The position numbers and the translations under genes are program-made. From the NCBI GenBank assembly GCA_964486995.1, contig CAZAOV010000007.1, positions 699-64,698 of the forward strand: 64,000 nt of DNA, written 5' to 3'. Below the pieces are notes generated by a model. It did not search any database, was not told the DNA's origin, and saw nothing but the letters and a program-made list of their open reading frames with translations. Each line of letters starts with the position of its first letter. Position 1 is the first letter of the stretch. Positions 9,598 through 33,262 of this stretch are shown piece by piece. The stretch comes from an uncultured Gammaproteobacteria bacterium. Lineage in GTDB: Bacteria > Patescibacteriota > Patescibacteriia > SG8-24.

Positions 9598-10296
9598 ATG
9601 GACAACATAAAAGATTTTTCGCCACTCGAGGAACGAGTCGGCATCAAGTTTGATAATCGCGAAGTTCTAACTCAAGCGTTTGTTCACCGTTCGTACCTGA
9701 ATGAGCATCCGGGATTTGAAATTGGGCATAACGAGCGTCTGGAGTTTCTGGGTGATGCAGTGTTAGAGCTCGCGGTTACGGAATATCTCTACGAAAAATA
9801 TCCTAATCCCGAAGGCGAGCTCACCAATTGGAGAGCCGCTTTAGTTAACGCCAAGTCGTTGGCTAAGGTGGCCGCCGAAGTGGGGCTTGAAGATTATTTG
9901 TATCTGTCGCACGGCGAAGCCAGAGACTCGGGCAGTAAAGCGCGCAACTATATTTTAGCTAACGCCATGGAAGCGTTTATTGGTGCCATATATATAGATA
10001 AAGGAATGGAGGTGGCCGCCGAATTCATAAATAAATACATCATCTCGATGCTGGCAGAGATTCTGGAGAAGAAGCTATACATCGATCCCAAGAGTCGATT
10101 CCAGGAGAGTGCGCAAGAGTTGGTTGGCGTTACTCCGAGTTATCGGGTAATCAAGGAAATTGGACCGGATCACGCCAAGGAATTTACGGTTGGAGTTTAC
10201 TTGAACGACGAGCTGGTGGCCGAGGGACTGGGCACTTCTAAGCAAGAGGCGCAGATCGCTGCCGCCGAAAATGCACTCAACGCTAAAAAATGGTAG
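9598..10296 (+). CDS. rnc: Ribonuclease III
   Basis: RNase III signature ERLEFLGDAVLELAVTEYLY plus a C-terminal dsRBD. Confidence 0.9.
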   Translation: MDNIKDFSPLEERVGIKFDNREVLTQAFVHRSYLNEHPGFEIGHNERLEFLGDAVLELAVTEYLYEKYPNPEGELTNWRAALVNAKSLAKVAAEVGLEDYLYLSHGEARDSGSKARNYILANAMEAFIGAIYIDKGMEVAAEFINKYIISMLAEILEKKLYIDPKSRFQESAQELVGVTPSYRVIKEIGPDHAKEFTVGVYLNDELVAEGLGTSKQEAQIAAAENALNAKKW

Positions 10297-11405
10297 AATG
10301 GGGACGTATGGAAACTCCCTTCAAGCCAAAGGCGCGTGAAGTCATAGATCGGCTGTTCGGAATCGCCGTTGATCAAGGCGCCTCTGACCTTCATCTGGTG
10401 GTTAACAGGCCGCCGATTTTGCGTATAGGTGGACAGCTCACGCCAGTTAATGGCGCAGCCGTATTGAATGCAGAGAACGTTAAGCAGTTATGTTTTTCAA
10501 TTTTGACGGATGTTGAGCGCGAACGTTTTATTACCGAAAAAGAATTAGATGTCGCGCATCAAATTCCGTCCGGCAAGCGCTTCCGAATTAATTTGCATTG
10601 GGAAAGGGAGCATGTTGCAATGGCGGCTCGAACTATTCCGTCAGACATTCCGTCCATGAAAGATTTGGATCTGCCGCCGGTGGCGCACCAAATGGTTAAT
10701 TATCCGCATGGCTTGGTGCTGGTAACCGGACCGACCGGCGCCGGTAAGTCCACGACATTGGCGTCCATGATCGACAGCATCATAGATACTAAACCGGTTA
10801 ATGTGATTACCCTAGAAGATCCGATAGAGTTTTTGTTCGAATCTAAGACCGCAGTGGTTCGTCAGCGTCAGTTTGGTCAGGATTTTATAAGTTTTGAGGA
10901 AGGCCTGAAGCATATTTTACGCCAGGATCCGGATGTGGTGATGGTTGGTGAAATGCGTGACATGTCAACGATTTCCACCACGCTTACTATTGCCGAAACC
11001 GGTCACCTGGTATTCGCCACGTTGCACACCTACAGTGCGGCACAGACTATCGATCGTATTATCGACGCCTTTCCGGCGCATCAGCAGAATCAGATCAGAA
11101 CCCAGTTAGCGTTAACATTACGGGCGATTATCTCACAGCAGATGTTGCCTCAGACGGGCGGTGGTCGCGTAGCCTCGCGCGAGATTCTGGTGAATAACTA
11201 TGCCATTGCAAATCTGATACGTGACGGTAAGGTACAGCAGATTAATAACGTACTGCAGACATCCGTCGCCGATGGCATGACCACTCTCAGGCAGGATCTG
11301 AAACGTTTGGTTGAAATGAATCTGATTTCCGAGAAGACTGCTAGTGAGCATATTATCGGTGAAGCGAAATTGAATGAGGATGAAGAAGACGGTAAGAAAA
11401 AGTAG
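10290..11405 (+). CDS. pilT: Type IV pilus retraction ATPase PilT
   Basis: N-terminal ASDLHL...PPILRIGGQL, Walker A GPTGAGKSTT, Asp/His boxes; ~370 aa is the typical PilT size. Confidence 0.9.
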   Translation: MVEWGRMETPFKPKAREVIDRLFGIAVDQGASDLHLVVNRPPILRIGGQLTPVNGAAVLNAENVKQLCFSILTDVERERFITEKELDVAHQIPSGKRFRINLHWEREHVAMAARTIPSDIPSMKDLDLPPVAHQMVNYPHGLVLVTGPTGAGKSTTLASMIDSIIDTKPVNVITLEDPIEFLFESKTAVVRQRQFGQDFISFEEGLKHILRQDPDVVMVGEMRDMSTISTTLTIAETGHLVFATLHTYSAAQTIDRIIDAFPAHQQNQIRTQLALTLRAIISQQMLPQTGGGRVASREILVNNYAIANLIRDGKVQQINNVLQTSVADGMTTLRQDLKRLVEMNLISEKTASEHIIGEAKLNEDEEDGKKK

Positions 11406-11614
11406 ATATTTAGGTAATTGACAAATAGCCTTAAATGGGCTATTTTTGGTTAGGTGTTAGCGCTTCCGATATGGGGCAAGCTGCACCGCGTCGCAAGAAA
11501 TCATTTGCTCACCGTACTTATCGGTACGGCTCGCTGCATGATTCCTTGCGCCACGGCACATCTTACCCCATCTCGAAACCGCTTCACGTACTCGGCAAGA
11601 GGTTTACATATTAA

Positions 11615-11688
11615 GCGGGCGTAGTTCAACGGATAGAACGGCGGTTACGGAACCGTTAACGGGGGTTCGATTCCGTCTCGGGCGCTTC
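11615..11688 (+). pseudogene. Degenerate tRNA-Arg copy (6-nt anticodon loop, unpaired 3' acceptor strand)
   Basis: Identical to the tRNA-Arg at 11837 except loop TACGGA (6 nt) and 3' end CCGTCTCGGGCG, which cannot pair with the 5' GCGGGCG. Confidence 0.5.
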
Positions 11689-11836
11689 CGATATGGGGCA
11701 AGCTGCACCGCGTCGCAAGAAATCATTTGCTCACCGTACTTATCGGTACGGCTCGCTGCATGATTCCTTGCGCCACGGCACATCTTACCCCATCTCGAAA
11801 CCGCTTCACGTACTCGGCAAGAGGTTTACATATTAA

Positions 11837-11911
11837 GCGGGCGTAGTTCAACGGATAGAACGGCGGTCTTCGGAACCGTTAATGGGGGTTCGATTCCCTC
11901 CGCCCGCACCA
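11837..11911 (+). tRNA. tRNA-Arg (anticodon TCG) with encoded CCA
   Basis: Manual cloverleaf: acceptor GCGGGCG/CGCCCGC, D-arm GTTC-AACGGATA-GAAC, anticodon stem GCGGT/ACCGT with loop CTTCGGA, T-arm GGGGG-TTCGATT-CCCTC, discriminator A, CCA; followed by terminator AAAAAACCAACCATTCGGTTGGTTTTTT. Confidence 0.85.
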
Positions 11912-12216
11912 TGAAAAAACCAACCATTCGGTTGGTTTTTTCATGCGCTGCCAGCATGCTTGAGCAAGAAGGAGGCTCTTTTATGAAGGTACGACCATAA
12001 ATCACTTCTACGAAAAGCTGTTTTTGCTCCGCGACCTGATGAATACGCAGACAGCGAAGGATGTTGCCAAGCAACGCCATGAATACACGGATTATTTCGT
12101 CAGCCAGTTTATGATTGAATCGTATGGCATGGAATAGGGCCAACCGCGACCGTACAGGTCGTATTTTTTATCCCAAACCTCTTTACAAGATTCAAAATAT
12201 ATGCTATAAATTGTTC

Positions 12217-12291
12217 GGGTCGGTAGCTCAACGGTAGAGCAAATGGCTCTTAACCATTAGGTTCAGGGTTCGAGTCCCTGTCGACCCACCA
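12217..12291 (+). tRNA. tRNA-Lys (anticodon CTT) with encoded CCA
   Basis: Acceptor GGGTCGG/TCGACCC, D-arm GCTC-AACGGTA-GAGC, anticodon stem AATGG/CCATT with loop CTCTTAA, T-arm CAGGG-TTCGAGT-CCCTG, CCA; followed by terminator GCCCCAGCCGAATAGGCTGGGGC-TTT. Confidence 0.85.
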
Positions 12292-12428
12292 GATATGGTG
12301 GCCCCAGCCGAATAGGCTGGGGCTTTCCGCTATTTAAGGGTCAACAGGGATGAGAAGGGCGGCGAGAGAATGCGTGCTGGTGAGCATTTGGTGCGTAGCT
12401 GCCCCAGTACCCGAGTCGGAGCGAGGGG

Positions 12429-12446
12429 GAGTCCCTGTCGACCCAC
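12429..12446 (+). repeat. 18 bp direct repeat of the tRNA-Lys 3' end (GAGTCCCTGTCGACCCAC), att-like, followed by a terminator hairpin
   Basis: Exact copy of tRNA-Lys positions 12272..12289, located ~140 bp downstream and followed by CAGCCCTACAGGCTG-T6. Confidence 0.55.
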
Positions 12447-12882
12447 AATATGCGAAAAACAGCCCTACAGGCTGTTTTTTCTTGTTTTCCAGAACGGGCG
12501 TCGCCTGTTTGATAGGCGAAATGCGCCACACTGGAGCGGTCTATCTCCCCACCGAACTCAACCAATATACCTTACTGTATGATCGAAATGCGCTGGCTGC
12601 TTGGCACATTTCATTCCGGCAGACGACCGCTTGACCTTGCAGATAGCAATTGTCAGGCGTGATTTGCATTATCAACGGAAAAAAAATGCCTTCGCGACGG
12701 AATTTATTGACGTCGAATATTTTATAAGCCTATAAATTAGGTCAATAATGACTTTATTTCGCAAGCGAAATCGCTAATATGATATAGAAAAGCGTTTCAA
12801 GAATGTTTTCACACTTAATTTAAGCTAAAAATCATGGTATAATATATATGTAATACATATCCCGATTAACAGGAGGGGGGAT

Positions 12883-15384
12883 ATGAGAATTTTCATCCAA
12901 TTTAGCTTCTTATTTGCCGAAATATTGCTCGCGGTCGTTGAGCTTGTCGTAGGTGCGTTGATTTTGCGCGAATTTTTGCGCAGGAGAAATCAACCGCACC
13001 TTTTTTATATGGCTATCAGTCTCATATTAATGGGGCTGGGGAATGTTAGCGGATTTACGGGCGACTTCTTATATTCATACGGCGCGGAGAATTATGCTCT
13101 TATTTTTACCGCAATCTTTTCTAATATAATTTTGTTGGGTTCGTTCTTTTTTGCGTGTGGCATCGTAAATCTCTATGCCACCAGAAAGAAGTTGTGGTAT
13201 GCGCTGACGGCAATACTCGCCGTGGCGTTTTTACTGTTTGGCAGAGTGGGGGTAGGGGAGGCTTTTGGCCAGATTATTCCGGCAGAATCCGTGAGTCAGT
13301 TCATGTCCGCCTATGGCTACTGGATTTTGGTGCATTTTGTTGCTTCGATGGTGATTTTTAAGGCATATGCAAAGAGTCGCCATAATAAACAACCGTGCGG
13401 GGAAGCTGATCGCATGTTGTTCATAGGAAGCGGCATGTCTATGTTTTCTGCAATTATCGCGATAGGTTTTCTATCTGTGCAGGCAACTCAATTTACTGCC
13501 CTGGTGTATTTAGTTTTAATAATCGGTTCGGCGTACAAATATCTCGGTGCAGTAGCAATTAAACATCCAGATAAGCAGATTCAGACAAAGCCTGGTCAAG
13601 CAGTAAGCGGATTCATGACGGCGAAGGTGCTAATAGCCTGCGGTCTATTCTTTGTTATTTTTTCCTTTGCCTTGGTGGCTACCGTAACGCAGTACTTCGT
13701 TCGAGGGTCAATTGATAAGCAACACAAATTTATTAAGCACACACTACAGCATGCGGCCGCCGAACAAATAAGGCAACAGCAGACTCTGCGCACAGTATCT
13801 GAGATGCTCGCATCTCACCATGGGAGCCTACAAGCGCTAAACGGAGATGGGTCTGCTTTGATCGAGCTAATCAGTTTTGTTCGTGAGGATAAAAATGTCG
13901 ATATTGATTTGGTAGACGAGAATGGGAGTGTAATCGCAAGCTCATACAGCAGAGATATTGGCGAGAATTTTTACGCTCGTGATATCGCAGTGGTTGCGAG
14001 TGCCCTTGAAGGAAAAACTAGCGTCAGCATCGATATGTTGCGGGGGCCAAATATGTGGTCAAATATCTCCGCCAGCCCCATTTTTGATGATTCAAGTCAG
14101 GTTAGGGGGGCGCTGGTCATATCTCAGCAACTAATCGCAAGAAATTTTACTCAATGCTTAAGTGAATTCGGGGCGGAAATTAGTGGGTGCGGGTTAATCT
14201 CGTCGCGGGACGAGCAGATTTATTCGTCAGGCCAATCGGTGGATGCATTAGCCATTAATCGATTCAGAAAATTAATTCAGATTGGCGGCAGTTTTGGAGA
14301 AGCTGACGACGATGAGCTTGGAAAATACTTTGTTAGTTCTTACGGCGATGATTTGGGGGAGGACGAGTTCTATTATGCGTTTACAGCAGATGAAGATCGA
14401 GATGCGGTCTTGTTGCGGATTATGTCAACTGTTGTATTGATTACGTTTCTATTTTTTGCGGCGTTTTCGTTCTTGCTGATTTTCGGCACAAGCCTGTTCC
14501 TCAAGCCGATAATGATATTGCGGCAGGCGGCTGTGCGGCTGTCTCGGGGAGAATTCGACCAAGTTCTAGAAAGATCTTCTGCGGATGAGATTGGTCAGTT
14601 GACGCAGGCCTTTAACGACATGACTGCGACCATACGGAAGCAAACTCGAAGCCTAAACGAAAAAATTCGCGAGCAACGGGATGCCTTGTCCCATACGGCG
14701 CATGAGATTCGAATACCGCTGAACATATTTCGTTGGTCATTAGAGATGCTTCGCTTCGGTGAGGTTGGGCCACTCAACAATGAGCAGATGGAGTTGGTGG
14801 AACAGATGAGCCAGACCAATAATCGAATCAGGAAGCTAGTCAACGAGCTGCTGGAAGTTTCGCGTCTCGAGCAGGGTGGGGTGAGTTTAGAATTGGCCGA
14901 TGTGCAGATAGAAAATCTAATCGATGAAACGGCGGGCAGTTTCTCGGTTCTTTTCCGCCAGAAAAAAATAGATTTTTATTGGCACCGACCGGATAATCAG
15001 CTTCCGCCGGTAAGGATTGACCGCGAGCGCATTATTCAGGTTTTGAATAATCTATTTAGTAACGCTGCCAAATTTACCAATGAAGAGGGGCATGTAGAAA
15101 TTTCCGTCAAGGAACAGCCCGTGTCTGGTCCAAGTGGTCAGAAAGGCAGGTTCATTCGGGTAACCGTCAAGGACAACGGTCAGGGAATTCCGAAGAACGA
15201 GCAAAAAAATATCTTCAGCAAATTTTATCGAGCCGCCAACGTCGTCAAAGCGGAGATACAGGGTACCGGGTTGGGTCTTTATCTATCAAAGAAATATGTT
15301 GAGATGCATGGCGGGGAAATATGGTTTGAGTCCAAAGAGAGTGAGGGGACGTCATTCCATATAACTCTTCCTGTGTCAGATTAA
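12883..15384 (+). CDS. Sensor histidine kinase: N-terminal ~7TM domain, extracytoplasmic sensor region, HAMP, HisKA, HATPase
   Basis: SD AGGAGGGGGG. Multiple TM helices in the first 270 aa, HAMP (LRQAAVRLSRGEFDQ), H-box HTAHEIRIPLN, G-boxes DNGQGIP / GTGLGLYLSKKYVEMHGGEIW. Confidence 0.9.
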   Translation: MRIFIQFSFLFAEILLAVVELVVGALILREFLRRRNQPHLFYMAISLILMGLGNVSGFTGDFLYSYGAENYALIFTAIFSNIILLGSFFFACGIVNLYATRKKLWYALTAILAVAFLLFGRVGVGEAFGQIIPAESVSQFMSAYGYWILVHFVASMVIFKAYAKSRHNKQPCGEADRMLFIGSGMSMFSAIIAIGFLSVQATQFTALVYLVLIIGSAYKYLGAVAIKHPDKQIQTKPGQAVSGFMTAKVLIACGLFFVIFSFALVATVTQYFVRGSIDKQHKFIKHTLQHAAAEQIRQQQTLRTVSEMLASHHGSLQALNGDGSALIELISFVREDKNVDIDLVDENGSVIASSYSRDIGENFYARDIAVVASALEGKTSVSIDMLRGPNMWSNISASPIFDDSSQVRGALVISQQLIARNFTQCLSEFGAEISGCGLISSRDEQIYSSGQSVDALAINRFRKLIQIGGSFGEADDDELGKYFVSSYGDDLGEDEFYYAFTADEDRDAVLLRIMSTVVLITFLFFAAFSFLLIFGTSLFLKPIMILRQAAVRLSRGEFDQVLERSSADEIGQLTQAFNDMTATIRKQTRSLNEKIREQRDALSHTAHEIRIPLNIFRWSLEMLRFGEVGPLNNEQMELVEQMSQTNNRIRKLVNELLEVSRLEQGGVSLELADVQIENLIDETAGSFSVLFRQKKIDFYWHRPDNQLPPVRIDRERIIQVLNNLFSNAAKFTNEEGHVEISVKEQPVSGPSGQKGRFIRVTVKDNGQGIPKNEQKNIFSKFYRAANVVKAEIQGTGLGLYLSKKYVEMHGGEIWFESKESEGTSFHITLPVSD

Positions 15385-15408: not shown

Positions 15409-15798
15409 ATGGCAGAAAGAACATCTAAACTTAAAAAAGTTTTAATCATAGAGGACGAGCCCGCTCTTCGAGATATTTATGCTACTAAATTGGAGGGTGA
15501 CGGATTTGAGGTTATTCAGGCCAGTGACGGGTCTCAGGGCTTGAACGCGGCGATTCAATATTTACCGGATATCATTTTGTTGGATGTAATTATGCCAGTA
15601 AAGGACGGCTTTGAGACATTGCAAGATTTAAAGCTTAACCCAACGACAAAAGACATTCCGGTCGTTATTTTATCCAATCTCGGTCAAAGCTATGAGGTTA
15701 AGCGCGGTATGGATTTGGGTGCGGAAGATTTTCTGACCAAAGCGAATTTGATTCCGGCGAAGATCGCCGAGAAAGTTAAAGCCATCCTTGAAAAATAA
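15409..15798 (+). CDS. Single-domain (receiver-only) response regulator, CheY/PilH-like
   Basis: KVLIIEDEP...DIILLDVIMPVKDGFE...KA; 129 aa with no output domain. Confidence 0.85.
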   Translation: MAERTSKLKKVLIIEDEPALRDIYATKLEGDGFEVIQASDGSQGLNAAIQYLPDIILLDVIMPVKDGFETLQDLKLNPTTKDIPVVILSNLGQSYEVKRGMDLGAEDFLTKANLIPAKIAEKVKAILEK

Positions 15799-15810: not shown

Positions 15811-16206
15811 ATGCCAGAAGGCGACGGAAAAATTGAGGTAATGATTGTCGAGGACGATATGTTCCTACGAAAGATTTTGGCGAATAAATTCGGTAGGGAG
15901 GGCTTTGAGGTGCGTACCGCAGCTAACGGTGAGGAAGCCATAAATATGTTACGCAAACAAATTCCGTCTTTGCTGGTGTTGGACTTGATAATGCCAAAGA
16001 TGAGCGGTTTTGATGTTTTGGCAGAGGTGCGGGCAGATTCGAAGATGGCAGATCTTCCGGTCGTTGTGCTTTCCAACCTCAGCCAGGAAGAGGACATAGC
16101 TCGAGTCAAGGAAATGGGGGCGCTGAGCTTCCTGTCCAAGGCCGATAATTCCATCAATTATATCGTGTCTCAAATAAAGGAAGAGTACGCCAAGATAGCT
16201 AAATAG
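15811..16206 (+). CDS. Single-domain (receiver-only) response regulator, CheY/PilG-like
   Basis: VMIVEDDMFLR...LLVLDLIMPKMSGFDVL...K; 131 aa with no output domain. Confidence 0.85.
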   Translation: MPEGDGKIEVMIVEDDMFLRKILANKFGREGFEVRTAANGEEAINMLRKQIPSLLVLDLIMPKMSGFDVLAEVRADSKMADLPVVVLSNLSQEEDIARVKEMGALSFLSKADNSINYIVSQIKEEYAKIAK

Positions 16207-19253: not shown

Positions 19254-19769
19254 TTGGACGCTCATACGCTTCAACGCTCACATGTTTTTATGTTCAATCA
19301 GGTTTCAAAAAACGGCAAGCAATATTTTGGCTTCACGGTCATCGAGGTCATAATAGCTGTTGCTCTATTGTTGAGCGCAGCGGCTTTGTCGGTTCCGTTT
19401 ATGTCCAGCACCCTATCGAGGAATGAACTGGATGTGGCATTACAGCGGGCTGTTGACATGCTAAACGAGGCCCGTTCATCCGCCTTCAATGGACTCGGCG
19501 GCGGTGAATTTGGGGTGCGTTTTGAGTCTGGGGCAGTGGTCTTTTTTTCCGGCGACACTTATTCAGCGGTTGATCCAGATAACGTTGATTTTATCTTGCC
19601 TGGATTTGTGAGCATTACCGACATAAGCATCAGCGGCGGCGGATCCGAGATTGTTTTCGAGAGCGTTTCCGGCGCGCCGACACAAACCGGCTCCGTCGAA
19701 TTCACTGATTCTTCCGGCGAGACAAAAACCGTGTCGGTAAACACTCACGGCACGGTGAATTTGGAATAA
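19254..19769 (+). CDS. Prepilin-type (class III signal peptide) pseudopilin/minor pilin
   Basis: Leader ...KNGKQYFG followed by FTVIEVIIAVALLL (G-1, E+5, hydrophobic helix). The real start is probably the internal ATG (MFNQ..., ~19296). Confidence 0.7.
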   Translation: MDAHTLQRSHVFMFNQVSKNGKQYFGFTVIEVIIAVALLLSAAALSVPFMSSTLSRNELDVALQRAVDMLNEARSSAFNGLGGGEFGVRFESGAVVFFSGDTYSAVDPDNVDFILPGFVSITDISISGGGSEIVFESVSGAPTQTGSVEFTDSSGETKTVSVNTHGTVNLE

Positions 19770-25700: not shown

Positions 25701-28395
25701 TGGCGATGATGATTACGTTTATACGGGGCAGTTTACGATCAGCAATTATGGTATCCACGGATTTATTTTCCGTTATCAGGATGACAGTAATTTTTGGCGT
25801 CTAGTGTTTGAGTTTGGTCAGGTTCTGATTCGCGGTCAGGTGGGTGGGTCCTGGACAAATGCGGCCGGGCAGTCGGTAATCAATTGGTCTCCGACCGTCG
25901 GCACGACGTATAACATCAAGGTCAAAGCTGAAGGCAGTCAACTGGACGGAAAGTGGTGGGAAGACGGGACCGCCGAACCGGGTTCGTGGATGATTTCTGC
26001 CAATGACAGTCAGATATTGACTGGCTATGCGGGCGTGAGCAATCGTGACGGCACGCAGTTCGATAGTCTGTCCGTCACTACCTGCCTGACCGATCCGGTG
26101 ACTGGGTCGGTCACCGTAATTGACCCGAACGGCAATGATTCACTTATTGCTGGTTCGAACTATGAAATCCTGTGGAGCTCGTCGGACACTTCTGGCAATG
26201 TCGATATTGAATATTCGACCGACAATTTCGTTGCCGACATTAATTCGATTGCCAACAGCACGGCAGATGACGGAAGCTACTTTTGGACCGTTCCAAGCCT
26301 GGACAGTTCAACGGTGCGCGTGCGCATCAGCGACTCGGCCGATGCTGGCGTGACCGACACAAGCGACGCGGACTTCGAGATTTCCATGCCGCCGAGCGTC
26401 ACCGTAACCGACCCGAACGGCGGCGAGTCGCTCACTTCCGGTGACAGTTTTAATATCACCTGGATATCCATTAATTCCTCCGGATTCGTAGATATCGAGT
26501 ATTCAACCGACAATTTTGTTACCGATATAAATACGATAGTTGCCGGAACAGCCGATGACGGAATCCATGCCTGGAACGTGCCTGCTCTGGACAGTTCCAC
26601 CGTGCGCGTGCGCGTAACCGATGCGTTCTACGCCGGAATTGCAGATACGAGCGACGCGGACTTCAGCATCGCCACGCCGAGCACTGTCACGGTGACCGAC
26701 CCGAACGGCGGCGAGTCGCTCACTTCCGGTGACAGCTTTAATACCACCTGGACCTCCAACAACACCTCGGGCACGGTTGATATCGAATACTCCACCGACA
26801 ACTTTGTGTCCGATATCAATTCGATAGTTGTCGGAACCCTCGATGACGGTCTTTATGGCTGGACCGTTCCGAGTTTGGACAGCTCGACCGTACGCGTACG
26901 CGTTACCGACTCGGCCGATCCCGGCGTGACCGACACCAGCGACGCGGACTTCAGCATCGCCACGCCGAGCACTGTCACCGTGACCGACCCGAACGGCGGC
27001 GAGTCGTTAAACTCACAAGATTCATTCGACGTTACCTGGACCTCCAACAACACCTCGGGCACGGTTGATATCGAATACTCCACCGACAACTTTGTGTCCG
27101 ATATCAATTCGATAGTTGTCGGAACCCTCGATGACGGTCTTTATGGCTGGACCGTTCCGAGTTTGGACAGCTCGACCGTACGCGTACGCGTTACCGACTC
27201 GGCCGATCCCGGCGTGACCGACACCAGCGACGCGGACTTCAGCATCTCTACACAACCTACGTTCCGGGTAACCGAATACTACGTCACCAACAGTCAATTC
27301 AATCAGCAATCATACACCCTAACGCTCGACCAGGACTTAGAATCAAATTATTTTGTTATCGTCCGCGGCAGTGACGGTGACGGCAGCGGCAATGGCCATC
27401 GTGGTCCGGACGAGAACTACGCGGCATTGGCGGCTGACCCGTTTGGTACCGGTGATTTGAGCGATTCCGGTGCGTCAAACCAGATTGATCTTACCAGGCG
27501 GGGTGACACAGATGGCTGGCAGGGGGTAGTCACCGTAGTTGAATGCTTGGGCGACTGCGACTCGTCTGGCTTCGAACTGATTGGAGTCGAAGAGGTTACA
27601 CATTCTGGCAGTAGTACCGGCGGACAAGATACGTCCTCAGTTTCCTGGACCGACATCAATCAAATCATGCTGGTCGGCGGATTTTATGGCGCTGGCTGCA
27701 ACACCGATGAAAGCGACCATGTAGATCATGTCAGTTGCTTCGCCAAGATTTGGCCGGGCGGAACCAATGAAATTAATTGGTCCAGAGATGTCGGCGGCAA
27801 TAGTTCCCTGAGCACGGCCACCAGCACGGTCATGGTCATGGAGTGGGGGAGCGAATGGAACGTCCAGCGAGTTGATGTTGTCGGCAATAACGGCGGCAAC
27901 GGCGCGGACAGCACCGGCGAATACGACACGGCCAGCATCTCACCGGTGGCTCGGGTCAACACCTGGGTTTGGGGAACCGGTCACGTGGACGATGACGGTA
28001 TCGGCGATTCGGCCGAGGGGTCATTGGTTACGCTGGGCAACGGCGTGAACCAAAACGCCACCGAGTCGCAAGTAGCCGTAGGCAGTGAATACGGTGACGA
28101 CAAGGACTATGTGGTATATGCGCTAACGCACCCAGGCCTAGCGGTAGATTATTTCTTCAAGACCGACGGTCAAAGAGGCGATTTAACCAATGACGCGTCG
28201 GTTGATTCGGCGCCGGCCGGCAGTCGTATGGCGTTGGCCTATAACGGCTGTAACGGCACGGGACATGCTTATCCGAGGCCGATATTCTCGGCGCGATATT
28301 TATCGGACACGTTTATCCGCATGGAGCGGCTTCGGTCCGGTCAGGCATTTCCAGCTTGGATTCAGGGCATCGACTTTAGCGAGATAAAACATTAG
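22729..28395 (+). CDS. Giant pilin-like protein (~1888 aa): prepilin N-terminus; domains A-B, then A', a LamG/ConA-like domain, 4 tandem ~96 aa Ig-like repeats, and B'
   Basis: Start MKRAKQNNNRG/IALLELIIYLGLLGFV (class III signal). ORF track begins further upstream at 22588 inside the previous gene. Internal duplication of a ~190 aa domain (YRFFANDDSTDVGAPLAAQD... x2) and a ~370 aa domain (FRVTEYY...AWIQGIDFS x2). WRLVFEFGQVLIRG region consistent with a LamG-like fold. Confidence 0.8.
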   Translation: MKRAKQNNNRGIALLELIIYLGLLGFVLSAMVMFSVEFAATHAKSAALAESARNTKFAVTRIAYEVRRAESIDYDNSTLDTSPSVLTLETSNPSTNPTVISVVENQLMMSQGGGADIPLTPSQVEVEDFTIINVADTTRSRSIRVALTLGIVESGSLEEFSGVTSYMTTVRVWKDDGYNTEGTPPTPTPTYGQSAYRFFANDDSTDVGAPLAAQDSAAALSSDGNPFRLRMMVDVDTATVATSAASFKLQFAEKSGACDTYFVGESYEDVTAISDIAYNDNSPSDGVALNANANDPVRAGRTSVAQTYEEANNLTNSNQILAGQTGLWDFALIDNDGTDEKEYCFRLVHSSDSQLNDYSVVPEISTAAGSTTDVFRVTEYYITAGEFSGDTYDLTLDQALASNYFTIIRGSDGSGTGGGNRGPDENYVSLTADPFGTGELVPSSGSDVLQLTRHNSVDGWQGVVTVAECLGNCSTSGFELLDVRRVVHSGTSTGGTETAGASWSDIDQVMLLGGYNGAGCDSIETDSGSHHSCHVRLWPSGSNQIFWTRNSLGGLMTATSTVQVLEWGSDWTVQRRTVTGSSGGDGADQLTEYDRTAISSVNRDATWVWGTGHTSESGTGDSAEASLITLGDGVNLNSSESWVSVGQEVDWANKEFEVYALTHPSLMVDYRFKPDGNESDLTYDQAVNSATAGLRMSVAYNGSDGSGSQYPRPIFSTRYASDTSVRMERRRVGAEFPAWIQGIDFSNIMAGGGPPPSATLTQSAYRIFDNDDSTDVGAPLAAQDTAATLTANESEFRLRYLLGIDTFGLSMSGESLKLQYATKSGTCDTAFADESYADVTGATAIAFADNSPSDGVALTENANDPVSGGRTTIAQTYEENNNHTNTTAIANGEAGLWDFALVDNDGLNAADYCLRVVRSDGSLLDTYSVIPEVSTVSGCGVIFSDDFEDGDASDWVHTWDSGVDWNVVDVGGNNVYENTSSTYSQTQAPSFGDDDYVYTGQFTISNYGIHGFIFRYQDDSNFWRLVFEFGQVLIRGQVGGSWTNAAGQSVINWSPTVGTTYNIKVKAEGSQLDGKWWEDGTAEPGSWMISANDSQILTGYAGVSNRDGTQFDSLSVTTCLTDPVTGSVTVIDPNGNDSLIAGSNYEILWSSSDTSGNVDIEYSTDNFVADINSIANSTADDGSYFWTVPSLDSSTVRVRISDSADAGVTDTSDADFEISMPPSVTVTDPNGGESLTSGDSFNITWISINSSGFVDIEYSTDNFVTDINTIVAGTADDGIHAWNVPALDSSTVRVRVTDAFYAGIADTSDADFSIATPSTVTVTDPNGGESLTSGDSFNTTWTSNNTSGTVDIEYSTDNFVSDINSIVVGTLDDGLYGWTVPSLDSSTVRVRVTDSADPGVTDTSDADFSIATPSTVTVTDPNGGESLNSQDSFDVTWTSNNTSGTVDIEYSTDNFVSDINSIVVGTLDDGLYGWTVPSLDSSTVRVRVTDSADPGVTDTSDADFSISTQPTFRVTEYYVTNSQFNQQSYTLTLDQDLESNYFVIVRGSDGDGSGNGHRGPDENYAALAADPFGTGDLSDSGASNQIDLTRRGDTDGWQGVVTVVECLGDCDSSGFELIGVEEVTHSGSSTGGQDTSSVSWTDINQIMLVGGFYGAGCNTDESDHVDHVSCFAKIWPGGTNEINWSRDVGGNSSLSTATSTVMVMEWGSEWNVQRVDVVGNNGGNGADSTGEYDTASISPVARVNTWVWGTGHVDDDGIGDSAEGSLVTLGNGVNQNATESQVAVGSEYGDDKDYVVYALTHPGLAVDYFFKTDGQRGDLTNDASVDSAPAGSRMALAYNGCNGTGHAYPRPIFSARYLSDTFIRMERLRSGQAFPAWIQGIDFSEIKH
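26746..27240 (+). repeat. Near-identical ~288 bp tandem repeat inside the giant pilin (Ig-like repeats 3 and 4), ~210 bp of perfect nucleotide identity
   Basis: acctggacctccaacaacacctcgggcacggttgatatcgaatactccaccgac...gacttcagcatc occurs twice, 288 bp apart. Repeats 1-2 (26390..26690) are more diverged. Confidence 0.8.
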
Positions 28396-28397
28396 AT

Positions 28398-28820
28398 ATG
28401 ATAATTATCAAACCAGCGCAAAATACTGATAGGGGAGCCGTCGCTTTGATTACGGTAATTGTTTTAGGCTCGTTACTGCTTATACTCGGTCTGTCCGCTT
28501 CTTACGTTGGGCAGACAGAAATAATTATCGCCGGCCAGATGGACCGGGGTCAGCATGCTCGCACTCTAGCCGCTACATGTATTGAGGAAGCGCTGCATCG
28601 TCTCAAACTAGATGATGCATATGCAGGAGGAACGATTGATATTGATTCCGATTCTTGCGCAGTTACGATTATCGGCGCCGGTTCATCACGTACTATCACC
28701 AGCACGGCCATCTCGGGGGATTTTACCAAGAACATCGAAGTCATCGCTTCCCTAAGGCAAAATGCCGATACCGATGCCTCGGCATGGAACATAGATTCGT
28801 GGACTGAGTTAGACCCGTAA
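28398..28820 (+). CDS. PilX-N-like minor pilin
   Basis: N-terminus ...TDRGAVALITVIVLGSLLLILGLSASY resembles the PilX_N family (RGxALxxxLLLLxxLxxLG); 140 aa. Confidence 0.55.
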   Translation: MIIIKPAQNTDRGAVALITVIVLGSLLLILGLSASYVGQTEIIIAGQMDRGQHARTLAATCIEEALHRLKLDDAYAGGTIDIDSDSCAVTIIGAGSSRTITSTAISGDFTKNIEVIASLRQNADTDASAWNIDSWTELDP

Positions 28821-29086: not shown

Positions 29087-31732
29087 ATGTCCGGCAAGGC
29101 AGTTGGAATTGATATATCAGATCGCTCAATTGAGATGGTTTCCATGCGGGAAAAAAGCGCTGGAACCATTGATGGTGTGACACGAGCCGAACTACCTGCG
29201 GGGATAATTTCGCGAGGTAAGATTGAGGATTACGATGAGCTGTTGAAGCGAGTCAAGAGTCTTCTAGATGATTTATTTGGTGCTCGTCGTGGCAAGATTG
29301 ATGTGGGCATGGCCATGACAGAAACGATGGTCTATTCCAAAATATTCAGAATGCCGCAGGGGTTGGGCTACGATCATTATGCGAAAGCGCTGGAAATAGA
29401 GGCAATAGAGGAATTTCCGTATGACTTAACTTCGCAAGTGATTTCGAATTTTGTGCTGGTTCGGTCTGGAGAGAAAGAACGGGAATTTTTGTATGCCACC
29501 GTGGATGCGGATAAGGCTAAAGAATACGAACGCCTGCTGAACGAAGCTGGAGCTAACCCCGTTTTCTTTGAGCCTGAATCATCGGCTCTAGCCAGAGCGG
29601 CGGTGTCGCCAGAGCTATCATCGGACGCGCTTTTAGCTGATATCGGAGCGCGCACCACGATGCTGGTTGCCCTAGGAGTTAAAGGCGAGCCGGTGCTGAG
29701 TTCAGCAGTTCCTGTAGGTGGTGACATTTTGACTACAGAGATTGAGAAAAGACTCAACGTTACACTCGCGGAAGCGGAGGCAGTAAAGAGACGCAGTGGA
29801 TTTGACGCCAGCGTGGATGATGGGCGCGTCATGTTGATTCTGCAGAACCCGTTCGATGAAATAGCTAAAGAGATTAAGATAACCATCAATTATTATCACG
29901 AAAAGACTGGACGCGACATTAATAAGATAGTCTTGGCTGGCGGCACGTCGCTACTGCCCAAGGTTATGGATTACATGTCATCGCGCTTTGCGGACGTAGA
30001 AGTTTCTCGAGCCGATCCGCTAAAGAGGTTTGCGGTTAAACCGAACATAAAGCTACCACCAAAATTCAAACAAGAGGCCGTCTTATATTCGACGGCAGTC
30101 GGACTGGCAGTTCGTGCGGCGGGCTCGCGCGACCGTCCCGGTCCTAACTTACTACCGTCCGCTCGCGGCCACGGTCGCAAAAGCGGAGGGTTCATAAATT
30201 TCATTCGTTCTCTATTTAAAAAGCCCCTTCGTCCTATGTCACCAACCAAAAAGTCACCAAGAAAAAAAGCTTCACCCAAGAAGTCAATTAAGAAAAAGAC
30301 AGCTACCAAGAAGAAATCTTCTAAGCCCTCCTCGTCCAAGAAGGCTGCTATCGATTTTGATGCCAAAAAGGAGGAAATAAAAGAAGAGGAGGAGGTGGTT
30401 GAGACCACGGCCACGCAAGAGCCTGAAGAGGCGAAGGGCGATGCCGCGTCTGGTTTGAATGCAATCGTTGAGGCTGAAGATTCGGTCGATGCCGATGAGG
30501 GTATCGTTCCAGAACGAGATTTTGGTATGGGAGTTGGTGATATTTTGTCCGGTTCGTCAGAGAAAAAGGATGCCGACGAACAACTCGAGAGTGACGAGGC
30601 AGTAGATAAGGTTTCGATAGAATCGATTCTGCAGGGTCGGTCTAGTGGGGGAGCTGATGGCGTCTATGAGGACGATGAATATGGAACCGTTGAAGAGGAT
30701 CCACACCCGAAAAAGAGAAAGATTCGCTGGAGCGTAGCGATTCCGTTGGTGGTGTTCGTACTGGCCATCTTACTGGTCGCGGAAGGGGCTGGTTTGTTCG
30801 GTCGGGGCGGTTCGTCAAAGCTGTTCTCTGCAATTACGCCTTTCTTCGGAGGAGATGGAGGAAAGGAGCAAACGACTGAACCGGCTGAAACCGGACCGGT
30901 CGTTCCTTCGTTAATTTCCATGAACGTATTAATTTCCTCGGTCGAGGATGAGGAAGAAGTAGCAGTTTCGGTCGTTCCTTCGCGTATCATCGAAACTGAT
31001 GTGACCGCAACTGATTCTTTCCAGGCTACCGGCGAGGCTCCGGCTGAAGAGGCGCGTGCTGTGGGCACGATAACTGTGGTCAACGAAACATCGAACGACT
31101 ATCGCTTCGTCGCGACCACGCGCTTTTTGTCCACGGACGGCATATTGTTCCGCCTCAAGGAAGAGTCAGATATTCCGGCCAACAGCACGGCCGATGTTGA
31201 GGTGTATGCGGATGAAGTTGGTGCTTCCGGTGACATTGGTCCGTCCAGGTTCACTATTCCAGGTTTGGGCGGAGATTTGGAGCAGTACGTCTATGGACGA
31301 AGTCGAACCGCCATGACCGGTGGTAGCGGCACCGTGGCTGCAGTTAAGGAAGACGATATTGAAACCGCCCGCGCTACGCTGTTAGACCGTTTGTTTGATG
31401 AAGCGCGCGAAAATTTTAGGTCCATGATTTCGGCTGGGGAAATAGTACTTGATGATCTGATTACCTCTAATGAGTTGGACTCCACCCTGCCGGATATCGG
31501 GCAGGAAGGTACTGCGTTCGACGTGGCGCTCACAGTTCAGTTCAGCACCCTAGTGGTGCCAGAAGCGGATTTGCTGGCAAAACTAGGCGAGAAGCTTCTC
31601 GAAGAATTGCCAGAAAATGTAGTGCCGACCGACTATGAGCTGGGTGCGATGCTGTACACCGTCGAGGCATTCGACACTACCAGCGGTCGAGCAGAAATTC
31701 GCGCAGAAGCACCGGTCCAACGCATTCAATAA
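29087..31732 (+). CDS. pilM: PilM-PilN(-PilO-like) fusion: N-terminal actin-like PilM, K-rich linker, TM anchor, large extracytoplasmic C-terminal domain
   Basis: AVGIDISDRSIEMVS (PilM N-terminus), K-rich segment PTKKSPRKKASPKKSIKKK..., TM RWSVAIPLVVFVLAILLVAEGAGLFG, then a ~330 aa periplasmic-type domain. Confidence 0.8.
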   Translation: MSGKAVGIDISDRSIEMVSMREKSAGTIDGVTRAELPAGIISRGKIEDYDELLKRVKSLLDDLFGARRGKIDVGMAMTETMVYSKIFRMPQGLGYDHYAKALEIEAIEEFPYDLTSQVISNFVLVRSGEKEREFLYATVDADKAKEYERLLNEAGANPVFFEPESSALARAAVSPELSSDALLADIGARTTMLVALGVKGEPVLSSAVPVGGDILTTEIEKRLNVTLAEAEAVKRRSGFDASVDDGRVMLILQNPFDEIAKEIKITINYYHEKTGRDINKIVLAGGTSLLPKVMDYMSSRFADVEVSRADPLKRFAVKPNIKLPPKFKQEAVLYSTAVGLAVRAAGSRDRPGPNLLPSARGHGRKSGGFINFIRSLFKKPLRPMSPTKKSPRKKASPKKSIKKKTATKKKSSKPSSSKKAAIDFDAKKEEIKEEEEVVETTATQEPEEAKGDAASGLNAIVEAEDSVDADEGIVPERDFGMGVGDILSGSSEKKDADEQLESDEAVDKVSIESILQGRSSGGADGVYEDDEYGTVEEDPHPKKRKIRWSVAIPLVVFVLAILLVAEGAGLFGRGGSSKLFSAITPFFGGDGGKEQTTEPAETGPVVPSLISMNVLISSVEDEEEVAVSVVPSRIIETDVTATDSFQATGEAPAEEARAVGTITVVNETSNDYRFVATTRFLSTDGILFRLKEESDIPANSTADVEVYADEVGASGDIGPSRFTIPGLGGDLEQYVYGRSRTAMTGGSGTVAAVKEDDIETARATLLDRLFDEARENFRSMISAGEIVLDDLITSNELDSTLPDIGQEGTAFDVALTVQFSTLVVPEADLLAKLGEKLLEELPENVVPTDYELGAMLYTVEAFDTTSGRAEIRAEAPVQRIQ

Positions 31733-31809: not shown

Positions 31810-32400
31810 ATGAAGCGCAATAACAAAGGTTTTACCCTAGTCGAGCTCCTAATCGTCATCGGCATCATCGGTTTTCTGGCCGCAGCCATCTTGGTGGCGG
31901 TCGACCCGGTCAAGCGTATCCAGGACTCACGCAACTCCCAGCGCTGGTCAGAGGTCAACTCAATCCTGAACGCGGTGCTGAAGAAGCAGGTTGATGATCG
32001 GGCTCTGTATAACGGCGACTCAGCGGCACCCATCATCACCAGTGCCGACTATGCTCAGGTCATTGTCGAGGATGCAACCGATATAGTTTGTAATGTCGAG
32101 AGTACTCGACCCGGTTGCGATACAGCTTTGGATGTAAGCGCGGCGGACGCCGACTGCGTGGCGCAGCTTTTCGAAAATACTTCTCCGGGCACAGAACATC
32201 TTAATCCGACCTACTTGGCTGAAATGCCAACCGATCCCGGTGATGCCACCTGTCTGGATAGCGGAGACTGCACAGCGTTTGGTGACATTGTCATTGGTGA
32301 TTCGAATAGCGGTTATTATATCAAGCGAAGCACCGGCAACCGAATCGAGATTGGCGCATGTCAGCCGGAGCAGGGCGCTACCATCAGCGTCAAGCGATAG
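31810..32400 (+). CDS. pilA: Type IV major pilin (PilA-like), copy 1
   Basis: MKRNNKG/FTLVELLIVIGIIGFLAAAILVAV class III signal; 196 aa with 4 Cys in the C-terminal D-region; followed by terminator ATCCCGCTCCGTCTGAGCGGGAT-T5. Confidence 0.85.
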   Translation: MKRNNKGFTLVELLIVIGIIGFLAAAILVAVDPVKRIQDSRNSQRWSEVNSILNAVLKKQVDDRALYNGDSAAPIITSADYAQVIVEDATDIVCNVESTRPGCDTALDVSAADADCVAQLFENTSPGTEHLNPTYLAEMPTDPGDATCLDSGDCTAFGDIVIGDSNSGYYIKRSTGNRIEIGACQPEQGATISVKR

Positions 32401-32424
32401 CAATCAAATAGCGTGAATAAAAAA

Positions 32425-32453
32425 ATCCCGCTCCGTCTGAGCGGGATTTTTGT
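32425..32453 (+). terminator. Rho-independent terminator after pilin copy 1
   Basis: ATCCCGCTC-CGTCT-GAGCGGGAT followed by TTTTTGTTT. Confidence 0.65.
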
Positions 32454-32531
32454 TTACTTATGGTGTCGGACTGAAATAGATGCTAAAATATGAATACACC
32501 ATAAAGAAATCTCTCTAAACAAGATTTAAAT

Positions 32532-33137
32532 ATGAAGCGCAATAACAAAGGTTTTACCCTAGTCGAGCTCCTAATCGTCATCGGCATCATCGGTTTTCTG
32601 GCCGCAGCCATCTTGGTGGCGGTCGACCCGGTCAAGCGTATCCAGGACTCACGCAACTCCCAGCGCTGGTCAGAGGTCAACTCAATCCTGAACGCGGTGC
32701 TGAAGAAGCAGGTTGATGATCGGGCTCTGTATAATGGTGATACCGATGTCGCACCTGGCGATGGAGCCCAAATCATTACTCACGCCTCTAATGTGCAAGT
32801 CATCGTTTCGGACGTGACAGGTATAAGCTGTGACGCACCAGCAAATCGACCAGGCTGCAATCAGACAATGGATACCACGGCGGGAAGGAATTGCGTTGCT
32901 AAACTCTTTGATCCGGACACGGCCGATCAAGATGATGAGCATTTGAATCCGAACTATATGGCCGAGATGCCGCTCGATCCGGCCGAAAATGCCTGCGCCA
33001 GCGGCTGTACAACTCTTGGTAACTTAGCTATCGGAGATACCAACAGCGGCTACTACATTCACCGTACCACCGGCAACCGAATCGAGATTGGCGCCTGTCA
33101 GCCGGAGCAGTCGGCAACCATATCCGTGAAGCGCTAA
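32532..33137 (+). CDS. pilA: Type IV major pilin (PilA-like), copy 2: 5' 203 bp identical to copy 1, conserved 3' block, divergent middle
   Basis: Nucleotides 32532..32734 identical to 31810..32012. Shared 3' accggcaaccgaatcgagattggcgcNtgtcagccggagcag. Central ~120 codons homologous but highly diverged. Terminator CCCCGCCCTCACTGGGCGGGG-T4 at 33163..33188. Confidence 0.85.
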   Translation: MKRNNKGFTLVELLIVIGIIGFLAAAILVAVDPVKRIQDSRNSQRWSEVNSILNAVLKKQVDDRALYNGDTDVAPGDGAQIITHASNVQVIVSDVTGISCDAPANRPGCNQTMDTTAGRNCVAKLFDPDTADQDDEHLNPNYMAEMPLDPAENACASGCTTLGNLAIGDTNSGYYIHRTTGNRIEIGACQPEQSATISVKR

Positions 33138-33196
33138 GGCTGAACATCAAGCGGTAAACAAACCCCGCCCTCACTGGGCGGGGTTTTGTCTCGTTT

Positions 33197-33262
33197 AAAA
33201 ACTGTCAGACTTGTTTTAAGGCGGACGCGGAGCCGTCCCTTAAAACAAGTCTGACAGTTTTT
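33197..33262. repeat. Hairpin family 1, copy 2 (AAAACTGTCAGACTTGTTTTAAGGCGGAC ... GTCCCTTAAAACAAGTCTGACAGTTTTT)
   Basis: ~27 bp stem sharing the core CAGACTTGTTTTAAGG with the 6511..6600 hairpin. Confidence 0.6.

Follow-up and report, generated by a model that had tools for sequence, protein, structure and literature searches.

The 64 kb stretch of contig CAZAOV010000007.1 (GCA_964486995.1) analysed here, hereafter the window, harbours a genuine and complete-looking type IV pilus (T4P) cluster of an ultra-small bacterium belonging to the Patescibacteria, or candidate phyla radiation (CPR). This is probably the main type IVa-like pilus locus of an organism with a monoderm-type envelope, in which two giant modular pilins would serve as adhesins at the tip of a fibre whose motor would be gated by signals. 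All genes of the cluster lie on the forward (+) strand. They are listed below with positions given on the whole stretch, domains assigned using Pfam and NCBIfam hidden Markov models (HMMs), and a slash marking the predicted cleavage site of each prepilin leader.

10290-11405, +, pilT, retraction ATPase (T2SSE, E 1.6e-41; TIGR01420 pilT_fam, 414 bits against a cut-off of 319)
12883-15384, +, sensor histidine kinase, 833 amino acids (Pfam HAMP, HisKA, HATPase_c)
15409-15798, +, receiver-only regulator RR1, 129 amino acids (Response_reg as sole domain, E 1.2e-21)
15811-16206, +, receiver-only regulator RR2, 131 amino acids (Response_reg as sole domain, E 2.6e-23)
16207-17919, +, pilB, extension ATPase, 570 amino acids (MshEN, E 4e-12; T2SSE, E 2e-126)
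17946-19169, +, pilC, platform protein, 407 amino acids (T2SSF, E 4e-57, in two stretches)
19290-19769, +, minor pilin H, 159 amino acids, leader ...KQYFG/FTVIE
19772-22732, +, giant minor pilin I, 986 amino acids, leader ...FARSG/ISVIE
22729-28395, +, giant minor pilin J, 1,888 amino acids, leader MKRAKQNNNRG/IALLE
28398-28820, +, minor pilin K, 140 amino acids, leader ...NTDRG/AVALI, assigned by position and conservation
29087-31732, +, PilM-domain fusion, 881 amino acids (PilM_2, E 4e-30, residues 1-344)
31810-32400, +, pilA1, major pilin, 196 amino acids (N_methyl, E 4e-9), leader MKRNNKG/FTLVE
32421-32451, +, intrinsic terminator of pilA1, 13 bp stem
32532-33137, +, pilA2, major pilin, 201 amino acids (N_methyl, E 4e-9), leader MKRNNKG/FTLVE
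33160-33186, +, intrinsic terminator of pilA2, 11 bp stem

A motif scan of all six frames of the window detected exactly five prepilin N-termini with glycine at position -1 and glutamate at position +5 (G-1 and E+5), all of them within the pilus locus: those of the 159, 986 and 1,888 amino acid proteins starting at 19290, 19772 and 22729, and those of pilA1 and pilA2. The first three are encoded between pilC and the PilM-domain gene in a block of four translationally coupled minor pilin genes in an H-I-J-K-like order, separated by 2 nt (H-I), -4 nt (I-J) and 2 nt (J-K). Two members of this block, described in a preliminary description of this DNA as giant proteins with prepilin N-termini, carry the large modules on which the proposed adhesive function is based.

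The smaller of the two, in the I position, is modelled by AlphaFold2 as a modular pilin (mean predicted local distance difference test score, pLDDT, 85.4), comprised of the following parts.

19772-20272, +, pilin module, residues 1-167
residues 170-246, +, small beta domain defined from the AlphaFold2 model
20537-21319, +, first seven-bladed propeller, residues 256-516
21332-21613, +, first beta-sandwich, residues 521-614
21635-22420, +, second seven-bladed propeller, residues 622-883
22436-22726, +, second beta-sandwich, residues 889-985

In the model, a 56-residue alpha1 helix (residues 18-73) packs on a sheet (residues 81-167) to give a pilin fold, in agreement with the canonical G-1 and E+5 of the leader, such that the prepilin N-terminus originally assigned to this protein is borne out. 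The same is true of its propeller-like repeats: when counted from the list of modelled strands, each of the two propellers has seven four-stranded blades, and Foldseek comparison with the PDB retrieved tandem-propeller proteins including BT4663, BT4673 and PorZ, the first two being matched in the periplasmic glycan-sensing domains of Bacteroides hybrid two-component systems. In Pfam the propellers are Ycf48/BNR-like (PSII_BNR, E 5e-9), and no match to PilY1 (PF05567) was found in the protein. The N-terminal module has weak matches to PilV and GspI (E ~3e-4). At least 888 homologous proteins were identified, many of 950-1,460 amino acids aligned at 96-100% coverage; full-length relatives come from Patescibacteria, among them Uhrbacteria, Buchananbacteria and unclassified metagenome-assembled genomes, and several were named as prepilin-type by their sources. 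The glutamate at +5 is at least 90% conserved in an alignment of 31 of these sequences.

The gene in the J position has an ATG overlapping the stop codon of I by 4 nt. Its product is, judging from its sequence, likewise a modular pilin, with a pilin module followed by approximately 1,700 amino acids of beta-sandwich, CBM66-like and Ig-like modules, among which two types, A and B, each occur twice.

22729-23271, +, pilin module, residues 1-181
23272-23835, +, module A1, residues 182-369 (self-BLAST)
23836-24978, +, module B1, residues 370-750 (self-BLAST)
24979-25542, +, module A2, residues 751-938 (self-BLAST)
25543-26106, +, CBM66/DUF1080-like lectin module, residues 939-1126
26107-27258, +, four Ig-like repeats of 96 amino acids each, residues 1127-1510
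27259-28392, +, module B2, residues 1511-1888 (self-BLAST)

An exact look-up of the 1,888 amino acid protein returned no record, and the whole protein matched nothing in Pfam at E up to 0.01. That it begins as a pilin is evident from comparison with three related loci (L009-L011, described below), where the J slot is filled by a gene for an entire minor pilin of just 176-194 amino acids. These small pilins match residues 26-178 of J (tblastn, E 1e-12 to 1e-19), have invariant G-1 and E+5, and end exactly where module A starts; hence the prepilin N-terminus claimed for J holds, its first 180 residues being homologous to entire small minor pilins. A profile built from five sequences of the J pilin module had pilin N-termini as its best PDB matches, these being of a generic nature.

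An AlphaFold2 model of J residues 1-750 was generated from an alignment with anchoring rows spanning modules A and B; a fragment-only alignment for residues 1-1130 was rejected as MAFFT had placed A fragments on B. The model contains a helix at residues 2-68, and modules A and B are both all-beta (pLDDT >90). Fold searches with the model found no specific match for either module, retrieving only generic Ig-like or CARDB-like, adhesin-type beta-sandwiches. Module A is widespread in large surface proteins of Patescibacteria and is also found in DUF6701 proteins of Betaproteobacteria, which we take to be MshQ-type proteins of MSHA pilus loci. Module B, 380 amino acids long and without a Pfam family, shares 50-65% identity with C25-peptidase proteins of 2,500-3,100 amino acids from Acidobacteriota and Thermoanaerobaculales, an unusually high level of identity between phyla that suggests the module was recently exchanged.

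The Ig-like repeats noted in the preliminary description are present as four 96 amino acid units, corresponding to a 288 bp tandem DNA repeat at 26299-27246; when scanned alone, a single repeat matches the Kre9_KNH Ig-like family just at the cut-off (E 3.9e-5). By contrast, the LamG-like label used in that description finds no HMM support, as none of the Laminin G families PF02210, PF00054 and PF13385 matches J. Residues 931-1130 have no Pfam match even at E up to 5, nor any match in a single-sequence search of the PDB. However, a HMMER search with the lectin module detected 525 relatives, a short one of which weakly matches DUF1080/3-keto-disaccharide hydrolase (E 7.6e-4), and when 31 members were combined into a profile, this reached the carbohydrate-binding module of a Bacillus levanase (4azz, 4b1l, 4b1m; E 7e-4), which we take to be CBM66, a concanavalin-like beta-sandwich. 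Residues 939-1126 are therefore probably a lectin-type jelly roll, akin to LamG at the level of the broad superfamily at best. One apparent line of support for LamG was discarded: the Laminin_G_3 match in the closest homologue (P0003) is at its residues 517-675, outside the part homologous to J.

The two remaining minor pilins are small. H has weak matches to GspH (E 0.0027) and N_methyl (E 0.0034), both below cut-off, which together with its prepilin motif uphold its earlier identification as a pseudopilin. K has isoleucine rather than glutamate at +5 and two conserved cysteines. A G-1 leader lacking E+5 is the pattern of GspK/PilX-type capping pseudopilins, and the PilX-like identity previously given to K stands as regards position, leader and conservation, but gains nothing from HMMs: no match was found in Pfam or NCBIfam, and a profile search of the PDB reached nothing. 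Since the J profile reaches only generic pilin N-termini and the K profile nothing, the GspJ and GspK labels are positional. The GspH-I-J-K and FimU-PilV-W-X sets form priming or tip complexes (PMC7541494, PMC8179133), and the order and properties of the four proteins appear to mirror these sets, a likeness of position to which the HMM matches add weak support.

Immediately upstream of pilB lie the sensor kinase and two receiver-only regulators, the genes being separated by 24 nt (kinase-RR1), 12 nt (RR1-RR2) and 0 nt (RR2-pilB), such that the RR2 stop codon abuts the pilB start; pilB and pilC are then 26 nt apart. Hydropathy and inspection of the sequence indicate that the kinase has approximately seven N-terminal transmembrane (TM) helices, a further TM helix, an extracytoplasmic domain of ~230 amino acids, another TM helix and then the HAMP-HisKA-HATPase module. 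It was initially described as a 7TM sensor kinase. The kinase itself is confirmed and '7TM' is fair by hydropathy, which is compatible with a 7+1+1 arrangement, but the Pfam models of such modules (HisKA_7TM, 7TMR-DISM) do not match. The extracytoplasmic domain is weakly Cache-like (Cache_WalK, E 0.0034, below cut-off).

In both regulators Response_reg is the only domain, as expected of the two CheY-like single-domain proteins reported originally, and inspection shows that they retain the acidic pocket, the phospho-acceptor aspartate, and the serine and lysine. They are 38% identical to one another, and each has its own positional orthologue: RR1 corresponds to the first response regulator in L008 (59% identity) and L009 (52%), RR2 to the second (61% and 55%, respectively), which argues for two distinct roles. 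The epithet 'PilG/PilH-like' is apt insofar as each is a single receiver with phospho-acceptor residues; it does not extend to the kinase, which is of the classical HisKA type rather than a CheA, and does not denote membership of that system.

The breadth of these associations was assessed in seven loci recovered through exact-protein look-ups of giant-pilin homologues, the queries containing neither the kinase nor the receivers. In the list below, HK and RR denote histidine kinase and response regulator.

L008, Patescibacteria GCA_034716415.1: HK-RR-RR; J of 1,473 amino acids; K followed by a PilM fusion of 925 amino acids
L009, Uhrbacteria GCA_016929435.1: HK-RR-RR; J of 182 amino acids; K followed by a PilM fusion of 883 amino acids
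L010, JGI metagenome: several HK/RR sets; J of 176 amino acids; K followed by a 457 amino acid LytR_C protein
L011, JGI metagenome: several HK/RR sets, one kinase being HisKA_7TM; J of 194 amino acids; K followed by a 459 amino acid LytR_C protein
L014, ENA metagenome: HK-RR-RR, with pilT just upstream as here; J of 183 amino acids; K followed by unrelated genes
L015, ENA metagenome: Che-like, with receivers, CheB, CheA, CheC and CheD; J of 179 amino acids; K followed by a PilM-domain protein of 654 amino acids
L016, GCA_964653715.1: short HK and RR between pilB and pilC; J of 169 amino acids; K followed by a 568 amino acid SH3_3 protein

All seven contain pilB, pilC, an H of 150-177 amino acids, an I-type propeller pilin of 978-1,461 amino acids, a J and a K of 124-196 amino acids, with the homologues of H and K in positions equivalent to those in the window (L008-L011 and L014-L016). 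Pilin genes are found further downstream in six, L014 being the exception. Receiver-only signalling genes lie beside pilB in every one of the seven, so the suggestion that the pilus is under signal control gains weight. Full-length relatives of the kinase occupy the equivalent position in L008, L009 and L014, and the kinase found in that position in L011 carries PF16927. In L015 (ENA ERZ27249449 k141_1003206, positions 1-5390) the kinase and two receivers are replaced by a chemotaxis-like cluster directly upstream of pilB, consisting of several receivers, CheB, CheA with Hpt and CheW domains, CheC and CheD.

The remainder of the cluster defines the type of machine to which these proteins belong. 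With PilT, PilB, PilC, PilM, two major and four minor pilins, and without a secretin or GspC/L/M, none of which was detected by HMM among the open reading frames (ORFs) of the window, the locus encodes a type IVa-like apparatus rather than a type II secretion system (T2SS) or a ComG system, in accord with the type IV pilus proposed from the outset. The ComG competence models miss their cut-offs (ComGA, 242 bits against 300; ComGB, 148 against 240). PilB and PilC reach the equivalog cut-offs of neither the T4P nor the T2SS models in NCBIfam, the best such match of PilB being type_IV_pilB (524 bits). An exact look-up of PilB found it only on a 4.9 kb Logan contig, and a scan of a set of genome contigs with PilC gave relatives of at most 38% identity. 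PilN, PilO, PilP and the PilQ secretin have no Pfam match in the window, as is expected of the monoderm-type envelope of Patescibacteria. In line with the preliminary description, no prepilin peptidase gene (pilD) was seen, there being no Peptidase_A24 match in any ORF of at least 150 amino acids in the window. The flanking genes (gyrA, nusB, rnc, proS, RNase Y, ymdB, infB and leuS) are housekeeping functions, so the stretch is chromosomal rather than part of a mobile element. A promoter scan of the locus gave sites no more numerous than in shuffled sequence.

The gene following K had been described as a PilM-PilN fusion. Its PilM part stands, with an actin-like domain at residues 1-344, as do a PilN-like motif (GPNLLPS, near residue 352) and a TM helix (residues 544-574), beyond a K/E-rich linker of ~190 amino acids; but no PilN HMM matches the protein, and the ectodomain (residues 575-881) belongs to another family. 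The match to TIGR01175 (112 bits) is below its cut-off. PilN binds PilM through an INLLP motif, and the equivalent sequences in L008 (GLNLHPA) and L009 (EINFLLT) are partly kept. The conserved ectodomain, of ~300 amino acids, weakly matches Baseplate_J (E 0.0029); a PDB single-sequence search with it found no match, and the profile of its family reached only phage gp47 (E 1.7). That family numbers 220 detected proteins, mostly stand-alone proteins of Patescibacteria of ~380 amino acids with an N-terminal TM helix, some with PF04865, and one stand-alone copy adjoins a PilB-like ATPase in a 984 kb Magasanikbacteria contig. The topology predicted from the sequence is thus that of GspL, or of PilM plus PilN, with a different, lineage-specific outer domain.

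In L010 (13945-15318) and L011 (14771-16150) the slot of the PilM fusion is taken by the 457-459 amino acid protein, which has a TM helix and a C-terminal LytR_C domain with no PilM HMM match; it is possibly a very divergent PilM-like domain on a different ectodomain.

Taken together, these features suggest a mechanism in which an unlinked PilD would cleave all of the prepilins, and H, I, J and K would form a priming complex on PilC and PilM that ends up at the tip of the filament. Recognition of a host or a surface would then fall to a very large multivalent adhesin displayed at the tip, which probably binds glycans, so that the giant pilins would play the role of PilY1 in diderms while being fused directly to pilins. 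Extension of the fibre by PilB and retraction by PilT would tether the cell and pull it. The 7TM and extracytoplasmic domains of the kinase may detect a signal from the envelope or from outside the cell, leading it to phosphorylate both CheY-like proteins. These would bind PilB, PilT or PilM, or one of them would serve as a phosphate sink; in both cases they would gate extension against retraction rather than transcription. As the receivers have no output domain and adjoin pilB, the simplest interpretation is that they act on the motor itself, in the manner proposed for PilG and PilH (PMC11656802), or form a phosphate-sink pair. The tip-adhesin role envisaged for I and J in the preliminary description is plausible because the giants hold the I and J slots of a coupled block and carry propeller, lectin-like and Ig-like modules. 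If the H-I-J-K tip assignment holds, the tip would carry two propellers, at least four beta-sandwich modules, a lectin-like module and four Ig-like domains.

A broader proposal, which we regard as possible and put forward tentatively, is that this locus type constitutes a signal-gated host-capture device in several lineages of Patescibacteria. Receivers fed by interchangeable sensors (7TM kinases, PAS kinases or Che-like arrays) would act directly on PilB, PilT or PilM, and the tip pilins would carry host-recognition modules. The double propeller of I would form the conserved core, and J a lineage-specific, hypervariable cassette setting host range, its modules being exchanged with those of giant surface proteins from other phyla.

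Several observations weigh against the model of tip adhesins and a signal-gated motor. The naming of H, I, J and K follows from position and from weak HMM matches (E 1e-3 to 1e-4, below cut-offs), and the putative tip location of I and J from gene order and analogy; AlphaFold2 gives low confidence for the pilin module of J (pLDDT 35-60, at an alignment depth of two sequences); and prepilin cleavage, with pilD not in the window, is a prediction. L003, an Uhrbacteria locus found via PilC, has pilT and pilB without an upstream kinase, hence the link between signalling genes and pilB is common, not universal, and the co-location of pilB with the regulators could reflect co-regulation via an unseen partner. 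Furthermore, ComEC is encoded ~20 kb downstream of the pilus locus, making DNA uptake a possible second role of the fibre. Three alternatives were weighed. One is that the giants are cell-surface adhesins, using the prepilin-type helix, cleaved or not, as a membrane anchor and forming at most a basal priming scaffold, with the pilus itself built from PilA1, PilA2 and the small minor pilins. At 986 and 1,888 amino acids they are far above the size of any pilin shown experimentally in a fibre, and exceed the largest modular pilin defined by InterPro in 2021, of 860 amino acids (PMC8179133); the poorly modelled pilin module of J points the same way. Yet both have canonical G-1 and E+5 residues and short basic leaders, and lie in conserved positions within a translationally coupled minor pilin block, in an organism whose monoderm envelope has no secretin to limit the size of the tip. 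Were the helix not packed in a filament, the conservation of E+5 at 90% or more in the I family (31 members) would not be expected. We find this alternative unlikely.

A second alternative, in which the main function of the locus would be DNA uptake by a competence pilus, or secretion by a pseudopilus, instead of adhesion or motility by a type IVa pilus, is very doubtful. DNA import has been proposed for the T4P of Patescibacteria, ComEC is present in the window (Competence and metallo-beta-lactamase domains in two ORFs, 53537-56006), and PilB and PilC score nearly as well on GspE and GspF models. These points are opposed by a PilT above its family cut-off, which T2SS and ComG systems do not possess, by the failure to find a secretin, GspC/L/M or a short ComGA-type ATPase in the window, by two major pilin genes flanked by terminators, and by ~2,500 residues of propeller, lectin-like and Ig-like modules that point to surface binding. 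A further alternative concerns the signalling genes, which might be mere neighbours that regulate something else, or pilin transcription through an unlinked DNA-binding partner, rather than the motor. Receiver-only proteins are often phosphate sinks, or shuttle phosphate to other regulators, and the arrangement in L003 would accord with this; we nevertheless judge it improbable, given the receiver-only genes beside pilB in all seven loci derived from giant pilins and the abutment of RR2 and pilB. In addition, the type of kinase varies by lineage (classical HK, PAS-HK, CheA-type, or a short soluble HK between pilB and pilC) while the receivers stay, the pattern expected if the link to the motor is the conserved part. 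The model of tip adhesins and a signal-gated motor thus remains the reading that we prefer.

Modular pilins are already established: more than 1,200 have been listed, the largest at that time, of 860 amino acids, being from a Patescibacteria lineage (PMC8179133), and they are viewed as tip adhesins (PMC8179133, PMC9934059). Close counterparts are those of Streptococcus sanguinis, PilB with a vWA module and PilC with a concanavalin-like lectin module (PMC8179133, PMC9934059), which resemble the proteins described here in having a class III signal peptide ahead of a small pilin module onto which adhesin modules are grafted, in including a lectin-type module, in their predicted tip location and in their monoderm host. 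They differ in that two of the four minor pilins are modular here, with six to seven extra domains each and lengths of 986 and 1,888 as against ~450-490 amino acids, and in that the modules are propellers, A and B beta-sandwiches, a CBM66-like domain and Kre9-type Ig repeats, with no vWA.

T4P of Patescibacteria with accessory domains on their minor pilins are likewise known, from the Saccharibacteria species Nanosynbacter lyticus TM7x (PMC12206443). It has type IVa-like pilB, pilC, pilT and pilM, multiple minor and two major pilins, and PilX2, a minor pilin with a C-terminal hepta-bladed RCC1 propeller, is needed for host binding, while PilX1 carries a jelly roll (PMC12206443). A minor pilin bearing a propeller is therefore common to the two systems, but in the window the propeller is Ycf48/BNR-like and duplicated, and both giants have canonical G-1 and E+5; moreover TM7x has separate pilN and pilO genes and pilD within its locus. 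The study of that system names no kinase or response regulator (PMC12206443).

With FimU-PilVWX plus PilY1, and with GspH-I-J-K, the locus has in common four consecutive minor pilin or pseudopilin genes, the last without Glu+5, and an associated seven-bladed propeller adhesin. However, in the window the propeller is an integral part of the I-position pilin and not of a separate, non-pilin PilY1, and has no homology to PF05567; the I protein may work like PilY1 without being a member of that family. Similarly, the PilM fusion resembles GspL and PilM-PilN in joining a cytoplasmic actin-like domain via one TM helix to an extracytoplasmic domain, with an NLLP-like motif after PilM, but unlike them has a Patescibacteria ectodomain with a Baseplate_J-like stretch and a disordered K/E-rich linker of ~190 amino acids, and is accompanied by no PilO. 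As in the Pil-Chp system of Pseudomonas aeruginosa, two distinct receiver-only regulators are genetically tied to a T4P; PilG and PilH control the polarisation of PilB (PMC11656802), and control of the activity or localisation of the motor ATPase is a plausible common role. The kinase in the window is, by contrast, a membrane HAMP-HisKA sensor and not a CheA (ChpA) coupled to a methyl-accepting chemotaxis protein (PilJ), and only L015 among the related loci has a CheA/CheB/CheC/CheD cluster in that position.

In the literature consulted, which is incomplete, we found no report of the I-type double-propeller prepilin family as a conserved core, of the expansion of the J pilin to 1,473-1,888 amino acids, or of PilM fused to a Baseplate_J-like ectodomain, nor of a consistent receiver-only signalling link or any kinase or receiver tied to T4P in CPR/Patescibacteria. 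Patescibacteria are abundant, mostly uncultured epibionts in which host recognition is poorly understood, and the T4P is the only attachment system whose importance has been demonstrated by experiment, in TM7x. In lineages other than Saccharibacteria, the double-propeller prepilin may be the conserved adhesin, and the minor pilin in the J slot is a candidate host-range determinant, accreting modules that are also found in C25-peptidase giants of Acidobacteriota and in DUF6701 proteins. A third idea that can be tested is that a dedicated phosphorelay ending in receiver-only proteins consistently accompanies the pilus motor in such minimal genomes. The two giants widen the size range recorded for modular pilins, without current models of T4P being overturned.

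The cluster ends with the two major pilin genes identified previously, both of which also exceed the TIGR02532 cut-off and encode a short leader with G-1, F+1 and E+5. Their products are 69% identical, with residues 1-70 identical and the last 35 nearly so, while the central, exposed part diverges with insertions and deletions, a pattern that gene conversion or surface variation could explain. L008, L010, L011 and L015 likewise have pilA genes in pairs.

At the other end of the locus, the core T4P genes are not all together as they were first portrayed: HMMs confirm pilT, pilB, pilC, the PilM domain and both pilA genes, but pilT is encoded with nusB-rnc, 1.5 kb upstream of the main block and set apart from it by two tRNA genes, which form a boundary and are not part of the pilus locus.

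11837-11911, +, tRNA-Arg(TCG) (ARAGORN, Rfam)
12217-12291, +, tRNA-Lys(CTT) (ARAGORN, Rfam)

The pilT ORF overlaps the rnc stop codon by 7 nt, and an alternative start (ATG at 10308) is 11 nt past it. In L014 pilT lies upstream of the kinase, and the nusB-rnc-pilT order is kept in a further contig, L012 (GCA_043825985.1, JBDRRB010000025.1).

L012 shares ~70-75% nucleotide identity with window positions 3939-36632 and retains gyrA...nusB-rnc-pilT-tRNA-Arg-(glyoxalase)-tRNA-Lys. After tRNA-Lys, it continues with a 5'-truncated PilM-fusion gene (520 amino acids, beginning in the linker), one pilA, HU and ymdB, and so is without the whole HK-RR-RR-pilB-pilC-minor-pilin block, the PilM domain and proS. 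This gap could represent a deletion beside the tRNA genes, relocation of the block or a mis-assembly. Approximately 155 nt 3' of tRNA-Lys (window 12292-12480, +) are also kept in L012, at 79% identity in a 236 nt match that includes the tRNA; the conserved stretch ends near a terminator-like hairpin (12454-12480) and has no Rfam match. It overlaps a 94 amino acid ORF (12350-12634) that was rejected as a gene, being without an HMM match, of odd composition and with the terminator-like hairpin inside it.

Two further observations were made downstream of the cluster. ComEC is apparently contained in two overlapping ORFs, with the Competence domain at 53537-55087 (+) and the metallo-beta-lactamase domain at 55071-56006 (+), which may reflect a genuine split, a frameshift or faulty assembly and bears on a possible role of the pilus in DNA uptake. 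Additionally, an ORF of 421 amino acids (45251-46516, -) runs antisense across the glutamate dehydrogenase gene (45164-46456, +), and is most likely a chance shadow ORF.

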